Source: Escherichia coli (GTDB lineage: Bacteria; Pseudomonadota; Gammaproteobacteria; Enterobacterales; Enterobacteriaceae). From it: a stretch of 64,000 nt of DNA. Position numbers and translations under genes: made by a program. Positions 2,825-38,421 of this stretch are shown in pieces. The notes under the pieces were generated by a model. That model saw only the letters and a list, made by a program, of their open reading frames with translations, did not search any database and was not told the DNA's origin. Each line of letters begins with the position of its first letter. Within the stretch, counting starts at the first letter, position 1. The DNA lies in assembly GCF_044324875.1 (NCBI RefSeq), contig NZ_CP172185.1. One strand, 5' to 3'.

Positions 2825-5377
2825 TCAGAACAATTCCTGTGCCTCGCCATTATCGATAATGGTCGTTCCCACCTCGTGCACCGCCTGTTGTGTCGGCTGC
2901 GTACCTTCGATGAAATACTCTTCGCGGCTGTTGCCACCATTAGCTAACTGCCCGGTGCTGCGATCGATATTCACCGTCACAATACCCGGCGGCGGCGTCA
3001 GCGGCTGCTCCGGCACACCTTCAAGAACGGCTTTCATATAAGCGTCCCATGCAGGCTGGGCACTCTTGGCACCGCCTTCGTAACCTGAGATCTGATCTTT
3101 AATCGCTCCGGAAGCCGTTGTATGACCGAGATTACGACGGTGATCATCAAAGCCAATCCAGACCGAGGTCACAACGCCCGGACCGTAACCCGAAAACCAC
3201 GCATCTTTCGAACTGTTAGTGGTACCGGTTTTCCCGCCGATATCGCGACGCTGCAAATCACGACCTGCACGCCAGCCGGTACCCTGCCAGCCTGGCTCAC
3301 CAAAGATATTGGTGTTCAAAGCACTCTTAATCAGGAATGCCAGCGGAGTGTTGATGACGTGCGGTGCGTACTCCTGCGCGCCAGTCTTCGCCACTAACGC
3401 CTGATTTGCCTGCTCCAGCTGCGGCATTGGCACAGAAACATTCTGCTGCTCGCGGGAGATAGCGACATCTTCAACATCGTTATTTTCCAGCACGTTCGAT
3501 TTCTGCGTATCACCGTAAATTACCGGAATATCGCATTCCGGGCAGGCTACTTTCGGTTTCGCTTCGAAAATCACGCCGCCCTGATCGTTTTCAATTTTGC
3601 TGATAAACCACGGGTCCACCAGGAAGCCGCCGTTCGCCATGACCGCGTAGCCGCGCGCCACCTGCATTGGGGTGAATGACGCTGAACCCAGCGCCAGCGA
3701 TTCGGTGTGGACAATGTTTTGCGCCGGGAAGCCGAAGCGTTGCAGATATTCTGCAGCGTAGTCGACGCCCATCGCCCGCATTGCGCGTACCATCACCACG
3801 TTTTTCGACTGGCCCAGTCCCTGACGTAAGCGAATTGGACCAGCATATTGTGGCGGCGAGTTTTTCGGCTGCCAGTCAGAACCGGCACCTGCGTCCCAGC
3901 GAGAAATTGGCACATCGTTCAACATACTTGCCAGCGTCAGACCTTTATCCATCGCCGCGGTGTAGAGGAACGGTTTGATGTTGGAACCCACCTGACGCAG
4001 TGCCTGGGTGGCGCGGTTAAACTTGCTCTGATTGAAATCAAAGCCACCGACCAGCGCCATAACGGCACCGTTTTGCGGATTGATCGACACCAGCGCCGAG
4101 TTCACTTCCGGCACTTGTGCCAGCCACCAAGCATCGCCAACCTGACGAACCCAGATTTGCTGACCCGTTTGCAGAACATCGGTCACTTTACGCGGCGTCG
4201 GTCCCTGCTGAGTATCCGAACGGTAAGGACGCGCCCAGCGAACGCCTTCCATACTCAATGCGACGGTCGACCCGTCCGCCAGCATCGCCGTCGCTTCCTG
4301 AGGATTGGCGCTGGTGACTGCGGCAGGTAGCAGAGGACCATAGGTCGGCAGCGCCTTCAACGTATCGGTAATCTTGTTGTTATCCCACGCCGACTCGCCC
4401 ACTTTCCACAGCACATTTGCCGGGCCGCGATAGCCGTGGCGCATGTCGTAGTCCAGCACGTTATTACGTACCGCCTGCTGTGCGGCCTGCTGCACTTTGC
4501 GGGTGATGGTGGTGTAAATGCGATAACCGTCTTCATAGGCACTTTCGCCATAACGGTTATACATCTCCTGGCGCACCATTTCGCTCAGGTACGGCGCAGA
4601 GAAAGCAATCTCCGGCGCGTGATAGTTAGCGTTAATCGCCTCAGTGCGTGTCTGATCGAACTGTTGCTGGGTGATATACCCTTCATCCAGCATCCGCGAC
4701 AGTACGACGTTACGCCGCGCGACGGCACGATCCATTGAGTAGAGCGGATTAAAGGTGGAAGGCGCTTTCGGCAGCCCGGCTATCACCGCCATTTCGTTCA
4801 GCGTCAGTTGGTCGACCGTTTTACCGAAATAGACTTGTGCCGCAGCACCGACACCATAGGCGCGGTAACCGAGGTAAATCTTGTTCAGATAAAGCTCGAG
4901 GATCTCGTCTTTCGTCAGCAATTGTTCAATGCGAATCGCGAGGAAGACTTCCTTAATCTTACGCATCAGCGTGCGTTCTGGACTGAGGAAGAAGTTTCTC
5001 GCCAGCTGCTGGGTAATGGTACTCGCCCCTTGTGACGCGTGGCCGGAGAACAGCGCCACACTTGCCGCACGGAAGATCCCCACCGGGTCAACGCCGTGAT
5101 GCTCGTAGAAGCGGCTGTCTTCCGTCGCGATAAAGGCTTTCACCATCTCCGGCGGGATTTGATCCAACGTAACCGGAATACGACGTTTCTCACCGTATTG
5201 AGCGATCAGCTCGCCATCGGCGCTGTAAATCTGCATCGGAATTTGCAGGCGAACATCTTTTAATGTCGCCACATCCGGCAGTTGTGGCTCGATGTAGCGG
5301 TATAGGCCATAAATCGAGCCTGCTCCCAGCAGAATGCAACAGACTGCAAGGATCAAAAAATACTTTACGAACTTCAC
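2825..5377 (-). CDS. mrcA: Penicillin-binding protein 1A (bifunctional glycosyltransferase/transpeptidase)
   Basis: 858-aa ORF in track; likely true start is the GTG at 5377 (VKFVKYFLIL...), giving 850 aa; N-terminal transmembrane anchor, glycosyltransferase and transpeptidase regions recognisable. Confidence 0.93.
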   Translation of the reverse strand: MKFVKYFLILAVCCILLGAGSIYGLYRYIEPQLPDVATLKDVRLQIPMQIYSADGELIAQYGEKRRIPVTLDQIPPEMVKAFIATEDSRFYEHHGVDPVGIFRAASVALFSGHASQGASTITQQLARNFFLSPERTLMRKIKEVFLAIRIEQLLTKDEILELYLNKIYLGYRAYGVGAAAQVYFGKTVDQLTLNEMAVIAGLPKAPSTFNPLYSMDRAVARRNVVLSRMLDEGYITQQQFDQTRTEAINANYHAPEIAFSAPYLSEMVRQEMYNRYGESAYEDGYRIYTTITRKVQQAAQQAVRNNVLDYDMRHGYRGPANVLWKVGESAWDNNKITDTLKALPTYGPLLPAAVTSANPQEATAMLADGSTVALSMEGVRWARPYRSDTQQGPTPRKVTDVLQTGQQIWVRQVGDAWWLAQVPEVNSALVSINPQNGAVMALVGGFDFNQSKFNRATQALRQVGSNIKPFLYTAAMDKGLTLASMLNDVPISRWDAGAGSDWQPKNSPPQYAGPIRLRQGLGQSKNVVMVRAMRAMGVDYAAEYLQRFGFPAQNIVHTESLALGSASFTPMQVARGYAVMANGGFLVDPWFISKIENDQGGVIFEAKPKVACPECDIPVIYGDTQKSNVLENNDVEDVAISREQQNVSVPMPQLEQANQALVAKTGAQEYAPHVINTPLAFLIKSALNTNIFGEPGWQGTGWRAGRDLQRRDIGGKTGTTNSSKDAWFSGYGPGVVTSVWIGFDDHRRNLGHTTASGAIKDQISGYEGGAKSAQPAWDAYMKAVLEGVPEQPLTPPPGIVTVNIDRSTGQLANGGNSREEYFIEGTQPTQQAVHEVGTTIIDNGEAQELF

Positions 5378-5496
5378 TGGAAATTTCCCATTTAGTTTCA
5401 TTTGGGCAGTTTATAAACAAACGCGCGGTAGTATAAAGGCAAGCCAGACGCATTGATATACCCGTCAGAGTGACGGGTGATAAGGAGATCATCACA

Positions 5497-6276
5497 ATGG
5501 CATTTAAGATCTGGCAAATTGGTTTGCATTTACAACAGCAAGAAGCGGTAGCGGTTGCTATCGTGCGGGGCACAAAAGAATGTTTTTTGCAACGCTGGTG
5601 GCGGTTGCCGCTGGAGAACGACATAATCAAAGATGGGCGGATTGTTGATGCGCAGCGGCTGGCTAACACGTTGTTACCGTGGAGTCGCGAACTGCCGCAG
5701 CGTCATCACATTATGTTGGCGTTTCCCGCCAGTCGCACATTACAGCGGTCATTTCCACGCCCGTCGATGTCCCTTGGTGAGCGGGAGCAAACGGCCTGGC
5801 TGTCCGGGACGATGGCCCGCGAGCTGGATATGGATCCGGACTCCCTGCGCTTCGATTACAGCGAAGACTCACTCAGTCCCGCCTATAACGTGACTACCGC
5901 GCAAAGCAAAGAGTTGGCAACGCTGCTTACTCTGGCAGAAAGGTTGCGTGTTCATGTTAGCGCGATCACCCCGGATGCCAGTGCATTACAGCGATTCCTG
6001 CCTTTTTTACCTTCTCATCAGCAATGTCTGGCCTGGCGTGATAACGAACAGTGGCTGTGGGCGACGCGCTATCGCTGGGGGCGCAAACTGGCGGTGGGGA
6101 TAACTAGCGCGAAGGAGCTGGCGGCAGCGTTATCCGTTGATCCCGAAAGCGTCGCGATATGTGGCGAAGGCGGATTTGATCCCTGGGAGGCCGTTTCTGT
6201 TCGTCAGCCGCCGCTACCGCCGCCAGGTGGAGACTTTGCCATCGCGCTGGGGCTGGCGCTTGGGAAGGCGTACTGA
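5497..6276 (+). CDS. hofM: HofM (PilM-like type IV pilus / DNA-uptake assembly protein)
   Basis: Track ORF 5470-6276; internal ATG at 5497 (MAFKIWQIGL...) matches the usual N-terminus; first gene of hofMNOPQ. Confidence 0.85.
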   Translation: MAFKIWQIGLHLQQQEAVAVAIVRGTKECFLQRWWRLPLENDIIKDGRIVDAQRLANTLLPWSRELPQRHHIMLAFPASRTLQRSFPRPSMSLGEREQTAWLSGTMARELDMDPDSLRFDYSEDSLSPAYNVTTAQSKELATLLTLAERLRVHVSAITPDASALQRFLPFLPSHQQCLAWRDNEQWLWATRYRWGRKLAVGITSAKELAAALSVDPESVAICGEGGFDPWEAVSVRQPPLPPPGGDFAIALGLALGKAY

Positions 6277-6815
6277 TGAACCCGCCAATTAATTTTTTGC
6301 CCTGGCGACAGCAACGCCGGACCGCTTTTCTTCGTTTCTGGTTGCTGATGTTCGTTGCGCCTCTGCTGCTGGCTGTCGGGATAACGCTAATACTGCGTCT
6401 GACAAGCAACGCCGAAGCACGCGTAGACACCGTTTTGCTTCAGGCGGAACAACAACTCGCCCGCAGCTTACAGATAACGAAACCACGTTTGCTGGAACGC
6501 CAGCAGTTACGCGAACAGCGTTTGCAAAGGCAGCTCCAGCGACAATTTACCCGTGACTGGCAATCTGCGCTGGAAGCACTGGCGGCGCTTTTACCCGAAC
6601 ACGCCTGGCTGACAACGATAAGCTGGCAGCAGGGAACGCTGGAGATCAAGGGGCTGACAACAAGCATTACCGCGTTAAACGCACTAGAAACGTCACTCCG
6701 CCAGGATGCTTCTTTTCATCTCAATCAGCGGGGGGCCACGCAGCAGGATACGCAGGGACGCTGGCAATTTGAGTATCAGTTAACAAGAAAGGTTAGCGAT
6801 GGACATGCTCTTTGA
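6276..6815 (+). CDS. hofN: HofN (PilN-like)
   Basis: 179-aa ORF with N-terminal transmembrane helix; ATGA start/stop overlap with hofM. Confidence 0.85.
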   Translation: MNPPINFLPWRQQRRTAFLRFWLLMFVAPLLLAVGITLILRLTSNAEARVDTVLLQAEQQLARSLQITKPRLLERQQLREQRLQRQLQRQFTRDWQSALEALAALLPEHAWLTTISWQQGTLEIKGLTTSITALNALETSLRQDASFHLNQRGATQQDTQGRWQFEYQLTRKVSDGHAL

Positions 6816-7239
6816 CTGGTGGTTCGTCGCATCACCCCGCCTCCGCCAGCTTTGCTGGGCAGTCTGGTTGCTGGTGTTAGTTACGCTCATTTTTCTGTCA
6901 TCGACACACCAGGAAGAGAGCGACGCATTAATTCGACTACGGGCGAGTCATCACCAGCAGTGGGCCGCACTGTATCGCCTGGTAGACACCACTCCCTTCA
7001 GCGAGGAAAAAACGCTGCCCTTTTCGCCACTGGATTTTCAGTTATCCGGCACGCAACTGGTTTACTGGCATCCATCCGCGCAGGGAGGTGAGTTGGCGTT
7101 GAAAACGCTGTGGGAAGCAGTGCCATCGGCATTTACACGGCTGGCAGAGCGCAACGTCAGCGTGAGCCGTTTTTCGTTAAGCGTGGAAGGTGATGACCTT
7201 TTGTTCACGCTACAACTGGAGACGCCGCATGAGGGTTAA
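6799..7239 (+). CDS. hofO: HofO (PilO-like)
   Basis: 146-aa ORF overlapping the hofN end; transmembrane N-terminus. Confidence 0.82.
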   Translation: MDMLFDWWFVASPRLRQLCWAVWLLVLVTLIFLSSTHQEESDALIRLRASHHQQWAALYRLVDTTPFSEEKTLPFSPLDFQLSGTQLVYWHPSAQGGELALKTLWEAVPSAFTRLAERNVSVSRFSLSVEGDDLLFTLQLETPHEG

Positions 7240-7633
7240 ACGCTGGTTGTTGGCAGGTATTGCATTGTGCCTTTTAACCGGTATGCGTGACCCTTTTAAA
7301 CCGCCGGAAGATCTATGCCGGATTAGCGAACTTAGCCAGTGGCGCTATCAGGGGATAGTAGGGCGAGGCGAGCGCATCATCGGTGTAATAAAAGACGGGC
7401 AAAAGAAATGGCGACGGGTGCAGCAAAACGATGTGCTGGAAAACGGTTGGACAATTTTACAGCTGACGCCAGACGCACTAACGCTGGGAACCGGGACAAA
7501 CTGCGAACCGCCACACTGGTTGTGGCAACGGCAAGGAGATACAAATGAAGCAATGGATAGCCGCACTACTGTTGATGCTTATACCCGGCGTACAGGCGGC
7601 AAAGCCGCAAAAAGTGACGCTGATGGTGGATGA
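7229..7633 (+). CDS. hofP: HofP (PilP-like lipoprotein)
   Basis: Track ORF 7190-7633; ATG at 7229 gives MRVKRWLLAGIALCLLTGM, a lipoprotein-type signal with cysteine. Confidence 0.8.
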   Translation: MRVKRWLLAGIALCLLTGMRDPFKPPEDLCRISELSQWRYQGIVGRGERIIGVIKDGQKKWRRVQQNDVLENGWTILQLTPDALTLGTGTNCEPPHWLWQRQGDTNEAMDSRTTVDAYTRRTGGKAAKSDADGG

Positions 7634-8783
7634 CGTTCCGGTAGCTCAGGTGTTGCAGGCGCTGGCTGAACAGGAGAAGTTGAACCTGGTCGTGTCGCCA
7701 GACGTCAGCGGTACGGTGTCGTTACATCTAACAGATGTTCCCTGGAAGCAGGCACTACAAACTGTAGTAAAAAGCGCCGGACTGATAACGCGGCAGGAAG
7801 GCAACATTCTCTCGGTGCATTCCGTTGCCTGGCAGAATGACAATATCGCCCGTCAGGAGGCGGAGCAGGCGCGGGCGCAGGCAAATCTGCCGCTGGAAAA
7901 TCGCAATATTACTCTGCAATACGCCGACGCCGGAGAGCTGGCGAAAGCGGGGGAGAAGCTACTGAGTGCCAAAGGGAGTATGACCGTCGATAAACGCACC
8001 AATCGCCTTTTGCTGCGAGATAACAAAGCGGCGTTAAGCGCGCTTGAACAGTGGGTAGCGCAAATGGATCTGCCGGTCGGGCAGGTTGAGCTGTCGGCGC
8101 ATATTGTCACCATTAATGAAAAAAGTTTGCGTGAGTTAGGCGTGAAATGGACGTTGGCTGATGCGCAACAAGCTGGTGGCGTTGGGCAAGTCACCACGCT
8201 TGGCAGCGACCTCTCCGTAGCGACGGCGACAACGCATGTCGGTTTTAACATTGGACGCATCAACGGACGTTTACTGGATCTTGAGCTTTCCGCGCTCGAA
8301 CAAAAACAGCAGCTGGATATTATCGCCAGTCCGCGTCTGCTTGCCTCACATCTTCAGCCTGCCAGCATTAAACAGGGGAGCGAAATTCCATATCAGGTTT
8401 CCAGCGGGGAAAGTGGCGCGACGTCGGTGGAATTTAAAGAGGCCGTCCTGGGGATGGAAGTTACGCCCACGGTGTTACAAAAAGGTCGCATCCGGCTGAA
8501 ATTACACATCAGCCAGAACGTTCCGGGGCAGGTGCTACAGCAGGCCGATGGCGAAGTGTTGGCGATTGATAAGCAGGAGATCGAAACGCAGGTCGAGGTC
8601 AAAAGCGGAGAAACGTTGGCGCTGGGCGGCATTTTTACCCGTAAAAATAAATCGGGTCAGGATAGCGTACCGTTGCTTGGCGACATTCCCTGGTTCGGGC
8701 AATTATTTCGTCATGACGGAAAAGAAGATGAACGACGCGAGTTAGTGGTGTTTATCACGCCACGACTGGTTTCCAGTGAGTAA
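7545..8783 (+). CDS. hofQ: HofQ secretin (DNA-uptake / type IV pilus outer-membrane channel)
   Basis: 412-aa ORF with signal peptide and secretin C-terminal domain (..VPLLGDIPWFGQLFR..). Confidence 0.9.
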   Translation: MKQWIAALLLMLIPGVQAAKPQKVTLMVDDVPVAQVLQALAEQEKLNLVVSPDVSGTVSLHLTDVPWKQALQTVVKSAGLITRQEGNILSVHSVAWQNDNIARQEAEQARAQANLPLENRNITLQYADAGELAKAGEKLLSAKGSMTVDKRTNRLLLRDNKAALSALEQWVAQMDLPVGQVELSAHIVTINEKSLRELGVKWTLADAQQAGGVGQVTTLGSDLSVATATTHVGFNIGRINGRLLDLELSALEQKQQLDIIASPRLLASHLQPASIKQGSEIPYQVSSGESGATSVEFKEAVLGMEVTPTVLQKGRIRLKLHISQNVPGQVLQQADGEVLAIDKQEIETQVEVKSGETLALGGIFTRKNKSGQDSVPLLGDIPWFGQLFRHDGKEDERRELVVFITPRLVSSE

Positions 8784-33850: not shown

Positions 33851-34177
33851 TTAACCGCGCAGCTGTACCACGCCGTCTTTCACTCGCGCTTCGTAATGCT
33901 TGACGGAAAACTGTTCGTCTTCCATGCACAAGCCGTCGCTTAAGCGAAAACGCTGTTTTTTCAGCGGGCTGGCGACCCACAGCTCGCCCTGGTGTTCCGC
34001 AATCAGCCCGCGTGACAGCACGCTGGACTCGAAGAACGGGTCGATGTTGCTGATCGCAAACACCTGGTCGCTGTGATACGGGCGGAAAATTGCTACCTGC
34101 TCGTCACCTAACAGCGCGCAGACGCCGGTTTCAGGCAGGATGTCATCGATTTTGCAGATGTCTTTCCACTGGCTCAT
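33851..34177 (-). CDS. nirD: Nitrite reductase (NADH) small subunit
   Basis: 108-aa Rieske-like ORF overlapping the nirB stop. Confidence 0.92.
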   Translation of the reverse strand: MSQWKDICKIDDILPETGVCALLGDEQVAIFRPYHSDQVFAISNIDPFFESSVLSRGLIAEHQGELWVASPLKKQRFRLSDGLCMEDEQFSVKHYEARVKDGVVQLRG

Positions 34178-36717
34178 GCGTTGTCCTCCACCAGAGTTAC
34201 CGGGATACGTTCATACGGCGTTGCCGGACGGTGCTGTTCGCGCTCTGGCACCATCTGCACGTTCGGGTCACGCTTGTCGCTGTTGATGAAGTGTTTGAAG
34301 CGAGTCTGCGCGGACGGTGTATTGACCGTCTCAGTCCACTCACACACTACCGCTTCACGCAGGCGCGCCATCTCTTCTTCCAGATGAGCGTTCAGCCCCA
34401 GTTTGTCGTCAATGATCACCGCTTTCAGGTAATCGATGCCGCCTTCAAGGTTTTCTAACCACGGCGCGGTACGCGTCAGTTTGTCGGCGGTACGGATGTA
34501 GAACATCATGAAGCGGTCGAGATATTTGATCAGCGTTTCGCGATCGATATCCGCTGCCAGCAGATCTGCATGACGCGGTTTCATGCCGCCGTTACCGCAA
34601 ACATACAGGTTCCAGCCTTTTTCGGTGGCGATAATACCCACGTCTTTACCCTGAGCTTCTGAACATTCACGGGTACAGCCGGAGACACCGAACTTCATTT
34701 TGTGCGGCGTACGGATGCCTTTGTAGCGGTTTTCCAGTTCCACGCCGAGGCCGACGCTGTCGCCAACGCCGTAGCGGCACCAGGTGCTACCCACGCAGGT
34801 TTTCGCCATACGCAGTGCTTTCGCATAGGCATGACCGGTTTCGAAACCGGCTTCAATCAGCTGACGCCAGATTTCCGGCAGATCGTCTTTCTGTGCGCCA
34901 AACATCGCCAGGCGCTGGGAGCCGGTGATTTTGGTGTAGAGATTAAATTCACGCGCGATACGACCCACTGCCATCAGCCCTTCCGGGGTGATTTCACCGC
35001 CCGGAGAACGCGGGATCACCGAGTAGGTGCCGTCTTTCTGGATGTTAGCGAGGAAGTTGTCGTTAGAATCCTGCAGCGGAGTATGTTCCGGCTTCAGAAT
35101 GTATTCGTTCCAGCAGGAGGCCAGCAGCGAACCGACGGTCGGTTTACAAACTTCACAACCGTAGCCTTTGCCGTGTTTCGCCAGCAGCTCTTCGAAGGTT
35201 TTAATGCCTTCAACGCGGATCAAATGGAACAGTTCCTGACGCGAATAAGCAAAGTGTTCGCACAGGTTGTTGTTAACTTCGATGCCCTGTTTCGCCAGTT
35301 CCGCGTTCAGTACCTGAGTGACCAGCGGGATACAGCCACCGCAGCCAGTACCCGCTTTGGTTTCAGCTTTCAGCGCCGCAACGGTGTGGCAGCCTTTGTT
35401 GATAGCAGCAATCAGGTCGCCTTTGGTGACGTCGAAGCAGGAGCAGATTTGCGCGCTGTCCGGCAGTTTATCAACACCGATAGACGGCTTACCGCTACCA
35501 GAGTGCGCCGGCAGAATCAGAGAATCCGGGTTTTCCGGCAGCTCGATAGCGTTCAGCACCAGTTGCAGCAGGTTGCCGTAGTCGCTGGTATCGCCCACCA
35601 GTACCGCACCGAGCAGGGTTTTGTTGTCTTCGCTGACAATAAGGCGTTTGTAGATCTCTTTGCTTTCGTCGAGGTAAACGTAGCTACGTGCGCCAGGTGT
35701 GCGACCGTGCGCATCACCAATACCGCCTACGTCTACGCCCAGCAGTTTCAGCTTGGCGCTAAGGTCAGCACCTTCAAAGGCGTTTTCGCTGCCAAGAATA
35801 TGGTCAACGGCGACCTGCGCCATTTTGTAGCCTGGTGCTACCAGACCAAATACACGGTTGTTCCAGCTTGCGCATTCACCGATGGCGTAGATATCCGGAT
35901 CGGAAGTCTGGCAGGAATCATTTATGACGATACCCCCACGCGGAGCAACGTCCAGACCACACTGGGTTGCCAGCTTATCGCGCGGACGGATACCGGTAGA
36001 GAAGACGATAAAGTCGACTTCCAGTTCGCTGCCGTCGGCAAAACGCATGGTTTTACGCGCTTCGACACCTTCCTGCACAATCTCAAGGGTGTTTTTGCTG
36101 GTGTGAACGCGCACACCCATACTTTCGATTTTGCGACGTAGCTGCTCGCCGCCCATCTGATCAAGCTGTTCCGCCATCAGCATAGGGGCAAATTCGATAA
36201 CGTGGGTTTCAATGCCTAAGTTTTTCAGCGCGCCAGCGGCTTCCAGACCTAACAGGCCGCCACCAACAACGGCACCGCGTTTGCTGCGACGGGCACAGGA
36301 TTCAATGGCGTTGAGGTCTTCAATGGTGCGATAGACAAAGCAGTCCTGAGTATCAGAACCTTTGATTGGTGGGATCCACGGGTAGGAACCGGTCGCCATG
36401 ATCAGCTTGTCATAAAAAACGGTGCGCCCGGCGCTGGAGTGAATCACCTTCTCCTGACGGTTGATGGTGATAGCGCGTTCGCCGACCAGAACTTTGATGC
36501 CGTGTTTCTCGTAGAAGCCTTCGCGCACCAGCGACAGCTCTTCGGCGGTGTGGTGAGAGAAGTAAGACGAGAGGTGTACGCGGTCATAAGCGATGCGCGG
36601 TTCTTCACAGAAAACGGTAATATCAAAGTTGGCCGCATCAGATTTATCAAGAAGATCTTCGATAAAGCGATGGCCGACCATACCGTTACCGATAATTGCG
36701 AGTCTGACTTTGCTCAT
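34174..36717 (-). CDS. nirB: Nitrite reductase (NADH) large subunit
   Basis: 847-aa ORF; N-terminal FAD/NAD fold MSKVRLAIIGNGMVGHRF and cysteine clusters for the siroheme/Fe-S site. Confidence 0.95.
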   Translation of the reverse strand: MSKVRLAIIGNGMVGHRFIEDLLDKSDAANFDITVFCEEPRIAYDRVHLSSYFSHHTAEELSLVREGFYEKHGIKVLVGERAITINRQEKVIHSSAGRTVFYDKLIMATGSYPWIPPIKGSDTQDCFVYRTIEDLNAIESCARRSKRGAVVGGGLLGLEAAGALKNLGIETHVIEFAPMLMAEQLDQMGGEQLRRKIESMGVRVHTSKNTLEIVQEGVEARKTMRFADGSELEVDFIVFSTGIRPRDKLATQCGLDVAPRGGIVINDSCQTSDPDIYAIGECASWNNRVFGLVAPGYKMAQVAVDHILGSENAFEGADLSAKLKLLGVDVGGIGDAHGRTPGARSYVYLDESKEIYKRLIVSEDNKTLLGAVLVGDTSDYGNLLQLVLNAIELPENPDSLILPAHSGSGKPSIGVDKLPDSAQICSCFDVTKGDLIAAINKGCHTVAALKAETKAGTGCGGCIPLVTQVLNAELAKQGIEVNNNLCEHFAYSRQELFHLIRVEGIKTFEELLAKHGKGYGCEVCKPTVGSLLASCWNEYILKPEHTPLQDSNDNFLANIQKDGTYSVIPRSPGGEITPEGLMAVGRIAREFNLYTKITGSQRLAMFGAQKDDLPEIWRQLIEAGFETGHAYAKALRMAKTCVGSTWCRYGVGDSVGLGVELENRYKGIRTPHKMKFGVSGCTRECSEAQGKDVGIIATEKGWNLYVCGNGGMKPRHADLLAADIDRETLIKYLDRFMMFYIRTADKLTRTAPWLENLEGGIDYLKAVIIDDKLGLNAHLEEEMARLREAVVCEWTETVNTPSAQTRFKHFINSDKRDPNVQMVPEREQHRPATPYERIPVTLVEDNA

Positions 36718-36765
36718 TTTTGCCTCGATTTCTTTTCTATTACCGCCTACCTTAACGATTCAGCA

Positions 36766-36779
36766 ACCCCGCTTATTGA
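36766..36779 (-). promoter_or_regulatory. FNR binding site (TTGAT-N4-ATCAA) of the nirB promoter
   Basis: Exact consensus ttgatgtaaatcaa about 50 bp upstream of the nirB start, the position expected for the class II FNR site. Confidence 0.8.
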
Positions 36780-36792
36780 TGTAAATCAAATT

Positions 36793-36808
36793 CACCTTTA
36801 TATACTCC
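36793..36808 (-). promoter_or_regulatory. NarL/NarP 7-2-7 heptamer pair of the nirB promoter
   Basis: tactcct-ta-aggggta inverted heptamers centred 28 bp upstream of the FNR site centre. Confidence 0.65.
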
Positions 36809-36978
36809 TTAAGGGGTATATTGCTGATTTGTATAAATTTTCTTAAGTCACGGAATTGTCTGACATTTCATGTTTGTGCAAAAAACAGACAAATTGAACG
36901 GGTTTATAGAAATAGATGCACGTAGCGGGGTTAGAGAGGAAAAGGCCGGACGACGATAGTGCCGTCCGGCATGAGCAA

Positions 36979-38160
36979 TTAATGAGAGGTCAGGGTGTTA
37001 TGCTGACGGTGACGGCTGACGAAACCTAACAGGAAGCACATCACAAAGACGACAGCGTACAGACCGTTTGCTGTAAGCAGTGCCGCCTGCGGACCGCTAT
37101 GTTCAACAATCGGCCCGGTAACCACAAAGGTCAACATAGTACCGATGGTCCCGCAGGTCAGGACAAAGTTAACCAGTTTTGGCGACGGTACTTTGGTCTG
37201 CTGTGAACCCAGGGTGATGATGGTGGTATAGATCGCGCTGGAGAAGAAGCCCAGGGCGAGAATTGACCACGCCATATGTGCCGGTGTTCCGGTGTTAAAG
37301 ACGTACATCAGAATCGCGGCCAGACCCGCCAGTACGGTCAGGATACGTTGCAAATCAAAGAAGCGAAGAATAAAGCTGAACGCCCACATGCCGATCATGT
37401 ATGACATCCAGAAGTTACTCACCAGCGTACCAGCATCATTCAGGCTCATGCCCAGGCCTTTGGCATACTCAGGCACCCAGGAGATAAAACCTAACTGACC
37501 GAGGATGTAGCACAGTGCCGCAATGGAGAGAAACAGCACGCCGATCCCCCACTTTTCTTTCTCTACCGGAGCATCCGTTTTTGGTGCATGTTTGCCCAGT
37601 GCCGGGAACTCACAGCCGAAGGTCAGAATAAAAATAGCGACATACACCAGCCCGATGCAGGCATAAACCCAGTACCACTCAATGCTGCGCGCCAGTAGAA
37701 ACGCGGCGATCATTGGGAAAATCATCCCAGCCATACTGAAGAAGGAGTCGGTAAATAACAGGCGGGAACCGCGCTGACGCCCTTCATACATTTGTGTTAT
37801 CAGGAATGTACCAATCGACATGGTGATGCCGCTGACCACCCCGAGAATGAACATCGCCGCCGAGAACAGCGCCAGGCTGTGGCTGAACATCAAACCGGCA
37901 ACCGCCAGCACCATCAGGAGAAAGCCAAAACGTAACTGCGTTTTCAACGGGACGATTTCCATCAGCCAGGCGTTGAGGAAGATAGAGATTAAAATGCCGG
38001 CGTTGAGGAAGGTGAAGGTATTACTCATACTGGAAACAGGCAGATTGAAATAATCGGCGATATTTCCCATCACCATCCCGGTGACAATAACCAACGCACC
38101 GGTCAGTGCGTAGGAGAGAAAGCTAATCCATGTGAGCTTGATGCGATTGCTGTTAGTCAT
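36979..38160 (-). CDS. tsgA: TsgA, MFS-type inner-membrane transporter
   Basis: 393-aa ORF with 12 predicted transmembrane helices. Confidence 0.88.
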
Positions 38161-38421
38161 GATTGGCCTGCGTTCAAAAATAAAATGGCATAGCGGGCTA
38201 TGCCGCGAGCGGGCGATTTTAGGTGATTTTGTGATCTGATTAAATGTTTTATTGCAATCGGTTGCTAAATTGCATTTTAAGAGGTGATTTTTATCACAGA
38301 ATAAAAAGTGATCGTCAGGTTACATATATTTCAGATACGTAAAATTAGGTAAAGGGATGGCCTTGTTCTTGAAGGCTATTTAGAATCTCTTCACTTGCTT
38401 TTTTTCTGCTCTGTTTGTTAA

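Follow-up and report, generated by a model that had tools for sequence, protein, structure and literature searches.

The tsgA-nirB intergenic region of Escherichia coli as, very probably, the known nir operon promoter with an FNR box and a NarL/NarP 7-2-7 site 28 bp apart

The DNA analysed was a stretch of 64,000 nucleotides from E. coli, referred to here as the window. The region 36718-36978 was found to be exactly the 261-bp space between tsgA and nirB, both of which lie on the minus strand. The nirB gene (34174-36717), encoding the large subunit of nitrite reductase, was identified by the NCBIfam model NF011565 with 1873 bits; it was the first gene behind the promoter and its ATG was at 36717. 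The upstream gene, tsgA (36979-38160), coded for an MFS transporter (NCBIfam NF002982 equivalog, E = 1e-193). Its stop codon occupied 36979-36981 and adjoined position 36978, so the first-pass annotation was right in placing the region directly after the tsgA stop. The outer limits given there were also exact, whereas the coordinates of both regulatory motifs had been set 10 bp too low. A permissive Rfam scan of 36500-37200 (E up to 1) returned no family, and hence no known riboswitch, leader or sRNA. Small open reading frames were present in the tsgA-nirB gap, all of them on the antisense strand; these were purely mechanical and were dismissed.

On the other side of tsgA, in the ppiA-tsgA intergenic region, the palindrome GTGATAAAAATCAC was observed at positions 38284-38297 of the window. 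It was one base off the K-12 14-mer GTGATCAAAATCAC, which Myers et al. (PMC3688515) list among the predicted FNR sites covered by an FNR ChIP-seq peak, the PatSer score being 12.33. The GTGA and TCAC half-sites of the palindrome in the window looked more CRP-like than FNR-like.

The FNR box was located at 36776-36789, with no strand assigned, and read TTGATGTAAATCAA on the plus strand and TTGATTTACATCAA in the nirB sense. Both half-sites were perfect, matching 10 of the 10 specified bases of TTGAT-N4-ATCAA. The perfect box had been quoted correctly before, but at 36766-36779. The pattern TTGATNNNNATCAA had this single match in the 64-kb window, against a chance expectation of 0.11, and 11 of 100 shuffled versions of the window also reached one match. 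The centre of the box fell between 36782 and 36783, at a distance of 65.5 bp from the A of the ATG.

The NarL/NarP 7-2-7 site, also with no strand assigned, was found at 36803-36818 rather than at 36793-36808, where the same sequence had originally been placed. It consisted of two inverted TACYYMT heptamers 2 bp apart, reading TACTCCT-TA-AGGGGTA on the plus strand and TACCCCT-TA-AGGAGTA in the nirB sense. The pattern TACYYMTNNAKRRGTA had a single match in the 64-kb window, with 0 mismatches (0.00 expected; 0 of 100 shuffles). The centre of the pair lay between 36810 and 36811, which was 93.5 bp from the ATG and 28 bp from the centre of the FNR box, with the NarL/NarP site being the upstream one; the spacing reported earlier was thereby reproduced. 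NarP presumably uses the same heptamers as NarL.

The transcript start (+1, an A) was set at 36741 on the minus strand by taking the FNR centre as -41.5. This position is 24 nt before the ATG, and the nirB start has been mapped 23 or 24 nt before it, with TAAGGT named as the -10 element (PMC4216584). A start 24 nt before the ATG gave -41.5 for the FNR box and -69.5 for the 7-2-7 site, in agreement with the published K-12 positions: the FNR site of nirBDC-cysG is listed at -41.5 by Myers et al. (PMC3688515), and the NarL site of the K-12 nir promoter (pnir) lies at -69.5 (PMC10853779). A discrepancy between the sites and the mapped nirB start had been named as the observation that would overturn the original reading; agreement was obtained instead.

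The -10 hexamer TAAGGT (36749-36754, minus strand; -13 to -8) was read from the sequence and was kept across species. It matched TATAAT at 3 of 6 positions, and no -35 hexamer accompanied it. A sigma-70 scan gave no promoter-like site in the region. Such a result was not regarded as counter-evidence, since a class II activator-dependent promoter with a weak -10 element and no -35 element would account for it. With the start taken from K-12, the FNR site near -41.5 overlapped the -35 region, as is required of a class II promoter. The nirB 5' UTR, AATAGAAAAGAAATCGAGGCAAAA (36718-36741, minus strand), contained the Shine-Dalgarno motif GAGG at 36723-36726 and was nearly invariant among 98 distinct upstream sequences, namely those of 97 other species and that of the window.

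A Cra (FruR)-like element, GCTGAATCGTTAAG, overlapped the -10 region at 36751-36764 on the minus strand and had one mismatch to RSTGAAWCSNTHHW. The scan of the window with the Cra consensus yielded 16 matches, with 12.9 expected, and was not significant by itself. The block GCTGAATCGTTAAGGT (-24 to -8), which is Cra-like and overlaps the -10 element, was strongly conserved across species. Repression of nirB by Cra was reportedly described by Tyson, Busby and Cole in 1997.

The FNR 14-mer TTGATTTACATCAA was the same in K-12. There, according to PMC3688515, it is bound by FNR in ChIP and has a PatSer score of 17.06, level with the narX/narK site; among the Table S6 entries covered, yfiD (17.25) was the only one with a higher score. 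In the fnr mutant data set of that study, K-12 nirB RNA stands at 0.03 of the wild-type level (PMC3688515). ChIP-seq and expression data for K-12, whose site is identical, demonstrated both occupancy and activation (PMC3688515), from which we infer that FNR would occupy the box and activate transcription anaerobically in this strain as well. Binding of phosphorylated NarL or NarP, with induction by nitrate and nitrite, is predicted by the same analogy, the window allele being one consensus-compatible base away from that of K-12.

Further, the conservation of the two sites was analysed in a sample comprising one genome per species, in which nirB loci were retrieved by the sequence coding for the N-terminus of NirB, using the degenerate DNA pattern KVRLAIIGNGMVGH, and hence without regard to promoter content. 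A total of 106 nirB loci were found, and the 102 with at least 140 nt of upstream sequence were used for the counts. Perfect FNR half-sites were recorded in 89 of the 102 species, and all 102 had a box with no more than two mismatches. The single best 7-2-7 match was positioned exactly 28 bp upstream of the FNR centre in 97 of the 102 species, and a 7-2-7 site with at most two mismatches occupied the 28-bp position in 93. The exact spacing was kept in Escherichia, Salmonella, Citrobacter, Klebsiella, Enterobacter and Kluyvera, and also in Rahnella, Ewingella, Hafnia, Pectobacterium and Photobacterium. Enterobacterales had 64-65 bp between the FNR centre and the ATG, and most Photobacterium had 70-72 bp. 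For other families, comparative genomics had earlier predicted NarP sites ahead of nir (PMC1805755).

An alignment of the 98 distinct upstream regions revealed conserved blocks at the FNR box, at the outer heptamer bases TAC...GTA, at -91 to -83, -131 to -100 and -24 to -8, and throughout the 5' UTR. Heptamer positions 4-6 varied freely between species, while the site itself stayed in place.

Short consensus sequences do match at random, and the FNR pattern was reached in some of the shuffles, so it was considered whether both motifs could be chance matches with no regulatory role in this strain. The probability of such a coincidence was judged to be negligible. The 7-2-7 pattern arose in none of the shuffles, each of the two sites was unique in the window, and the pair, with its 28-bp spacing, stood at the canonical distance from nirB. 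Moreover, they were identical or nearly identical to characterised K-12 sites, and their positions were conserved in about 100 species. The explanation by chance was thus refuted by the conservation together with the experimental literature on K-12, and the motifs were retained as regulatory sites of the nir promoter.

Several individual loci of the species sample were also recorded. In nine Photobacterium loci the 28-bp spacing was kept; the Photobacterium FNR box had an imperfect downstream half-site, TTGATTTACGTCAT or TTGATTTACATCAT, and TT replaced TA at the centre of the 7-2-7 site. Two copies on different contigs were present in P. sanguinicancri, and P. obscurum was an exception with a different arrangement. 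An enterobacterial-type nirB start was found in two assemblies labelled as Bacteroidota, Chryseobacterium sp. 18061 and Prolixibacteraceae bacterium JC049, the latter on a 408-bp contig. The former had, base for base, the FNR/7-2-7 promoter of Citrobacter sp. 18056, which came from the same study. Both are probably contaminating contigs.

The block at -91 to -83, ACAAATCAG (36824-36832, minus strand), had column identities of roughly 90% or higher among the species and adjoined the upstream NarL heptamer. It coincided with the published position of IHF I (-88), and IHF at -88 clashes with NarL at -69.5 (PMC10853779). The strict IHF consensus WATCAANNNNTTR had no match in the region, an outcome that carries little information by itself. 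The IHF site at ACAAATCAG is therefore a predicted one, its identity being drawn from the literature position and from conservation. Further conserved blocks at -100 to -131 (36841-36872, minus strand) were evident from the conservation profile and fell where IHF II and Fis sites have been published. IHF II reportedly lies at -115 and Fis I at -142 (Browning et al. 2000-2008), and Fis II is presumably at +23. The region had the arrangement expected of pnir, with FNR and NarL sites 28 bp apart and an IHF site beside that of NarL, where the identity of IHF comes from the literature.

It had been suggested in the first-pass annotation that read-through from tsgA could enter the promoter. A strong terminator-like hairpin after the tsgA stop had been overlooked in that proposal. 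The tsgA intrinsic terminator was delimited to 36935-36970 on the minus strand and comprised the stem GCCGGACGGC / GUCGUCCGGC with a 6-nt loop ACUAUC, followed by CUUUUCCUCU. The hairpin proper (36945-36970) began 9 nt past the tsgA stop and had a 10-bp stem with 8 G-C pairs. Its minimum free energy was -20.3 kcal/mol (z = -5.2), and 0 of 200 shuffles folded as well. A terminator scan flagged it as terminator-like, and the GC-rich hairpin with its U-rich tract had the composition of an intrinsic terminator, although the U-tract (CUUUUCCUCU) was interrupted. The hairpin was identical in K-12. A GC-rich hairpin of unrelated sequence stood directly after the tsgA stop in 64 of the 64 species that had tsgA upstream on the same strand. 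No match for tsgA/nirB 3'-end or transcript-start data was obtained in the eLife 2021 supplements.

The tsgA-nirB gap was about 1560 bp in Klebsiella, Enterobacter, Leclercia, Lelliottia, Trabulsiella, Yokenella and Pseudocitrobacter (five loci and about 20 others). This longer gap contained a cytosine-deaminase gene (NF006685, E = 5e-258) divergent from nirB, and the FNR/7-2-7 pair was unchanged. About 240 bp separated the nirB ATG from the deaminase start codon upstream of it, and the nir regulatory region is therefore a shared divergent promoter region in these genera. The persistence of the pair where the deaminase gene intervenes shows that the promoter does not depend on adjacency to tsgA.

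These data were weighed against the view that tsgA read-through materially feeds nirB expression or interferes with the promoter. The tsgA gene shares the strand of nirB and stops 261 bp before it, and with an imperfect U-tract termination may be incomplete. Against this stood the stable hairpin located 9 nt after the stop, the recurrence of hairpins of differing sequence behind tsgA in every species with that arrangement, and the many genera in which the promoter pair was unchanged despite an intervening gene. Additionally, the low K-12 nirB RNA level in the fnr mutant data set leaves little room for FNR-independent read-through (PMC3688515). A material contribution of tsgA was consequently considered very improbable. 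Large-scale read-through is unlikely because of the hairpin directly after the tsgA stop, and some leakage through the imperfect U-tract may occur. As read from the sequence, the promoter is an autonomous unit that is insulated from tsgA.

The 501-bp region around the promoter was 100% identical to that of E. coli strain 118UI. Of 5426 complete E. coli genomes, 5424 contained it with at least 95% identity, and the annotation was tsgA | nirB in every case. The 501-bp query also found three plasmid records in total. One of them, pLR-45_1 (NZ_AP027533.1; 86 kb, E. coli), carried nirB-nirD-nirC-cysG at 3395-8143. Homology to the window started at about -1 of the promoter in this plasmid, the FNR and NarL sites thus being absent; they were replaced by a truncated serine-hydrolase gene beside IS26.

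The region occupied the orthologous position before nirBDC-cysG in K-12, and the proposed comparison with the characterised K-12 nir promoter bore out its assignment, with the same site positions and 254 of 261 intergenic positions identical to those of strain BW25113 (about 97%). The sequence was the same from -71 to the ATG and beyond, which includes the FNR box, the downstream NarL heptamer, TAAGGT, the 5' UTR and the start codon. The tsgA-nirB locus, the 28-bp spacing and the tsgA terminator were shared as well. Seven single-base differences were noted, at -72, -123, -145, -153, -157, -190 and -191 (window positions 36813, 36864, 36886, 36894, 36898, 36931 and 36932). At -72, the window had C in the nirB sense where K-12 has A, and the upstream heptamer was accordingly TACCCCT as opposed to TACCCAT. 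The six other differences were in or beyond the upstream nucleoid-protein (IHF/Fis) region.

The frequency of the heptamer alleles was determined from exact matches of a 59-bp block around the NarL site in 5422 E. coli genomes. The window heptamer TACCCCT was found in 3806 of them, the K-12 heptamer TACCCAT in 1204 (22%) and TACCACT in 126. The window therefore had the majority allele and K-12 a minority one.

With seven differences, the quantitative behaviour of the promoter could depart from that of K-12. It was asked whether the window allele, with C at -72 and the changes at -123 and -145, responds to nitrate and nitrite in a quantitatively different manner. One of the intergenic differences is inside the NarL site, at least three heptamer alleles occur within E. 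coli, and strain-specific divergence has a precedent at the sister promoter pnrf (PMC5434802). Yet C and A at -72 both satisfy the TACYYMT consensus, and positions 4-6 of the heptamer are free to vary between species while the site persists. A quantitatively different response was hence considered unlikely, though it deserves more credit than the read-through discussed above. A broader proposal, in which natural nir promoter alleles (the three heptamer variants with linked changes in the Fis/IHF region) would tune the induction of the cytoplasmic nitrite reductase by nitrate and nitrite across E. coli lineages, was held to be somewhat less probable still. If it were true, the minority allele of K-12, on which the textbook model was built, would not be representative.

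Taken together, the region 36718-36978 is, with high confidence, the promoter of the E. coli nir operon and belongs to the class II FNR-dependent promoters. The anaerobic, nitrite- and nitrate-responsive architecture recognised in the original annotation was upheld by orthology to K-12, by NirB downstream and by the published site positions. Direct observation established that the sites are present and unique, how they are spaced, that they are deeply conserved and that the promoter is nearly identical to that of K-12. Factor binding, the transcript start and anti-repression are carried over to this strain from the literature.

In the published model, anaerobic activation comes from FNR at -41.5 and is repressed by IHF (-88) and Fis; phosphorylated NarL at -69.5 collides with IHF and displaces it, so that the repression is relieved (PMC10853779; PMC3688515). 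We proposed the following sequence of events for the promoter in the window. Under anaerobiosis, FNR bound to the TTGAT-N4-ATCAA box at -41.5 would recruit RNA polymerase to a promoter with a weak -10 element (TAAGGT) and no -35 element. Upstream nucleoid proteins, including IHF at about -88, would hold down this FNR-dependent activation. In the presence of nitrate or nitrite, phosphorylated NarL or NarP would bind the 7-2-7 site at -69.5, displace IHF and lift the repression. Transcription would then proceed from about 24 nt before the nirB ATG through nirBDC-cysG, while the terminator hairpin after tsgA would shield the promoter from upstream transcription.

The feature itself is already known and ordinary, and the importance of the analysis lies mainly in correct annotation and in little beyond that. 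The nir promoter is among the best-characterised cases of co-dependence on the oxygen sensor FNR and the nitrate/nitrite response regulators NarL/NarP through anti-repression. The by-products were the corrected coordinates, the 28-bp spacing kept in about 100 species up to Photobacterium, and the minority status of the K-12 heptamer.

Among the known systems, the E. coli pnrf promoter resembles pnir in having FNR at -41.5 and an upstream NarL/NarP site (PMC5434802, PMC3688515) and in a repression by nucleoid-associated proteins that is countered by NarL/NarP (PMC5434802). In contrast to pnir, it serves the operon of the periplasmic nitrite reductase, differs in sequence and in how its NarL/NarP, IHF and Fis sites are arranged, and lies outside this region. 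The yeaR and ogt promoters share with pnir the 7-2-7 heptamer architecture for NarL (PMC10853779). In those promoters, however, NarL sites at -43.5, or at -44.5 and -77.5, serve the direct activation of RNA polymerase without FNR, whereas at pnir the site is at -69.5 and would act by anti-repression of an FNR-dependent promoter.
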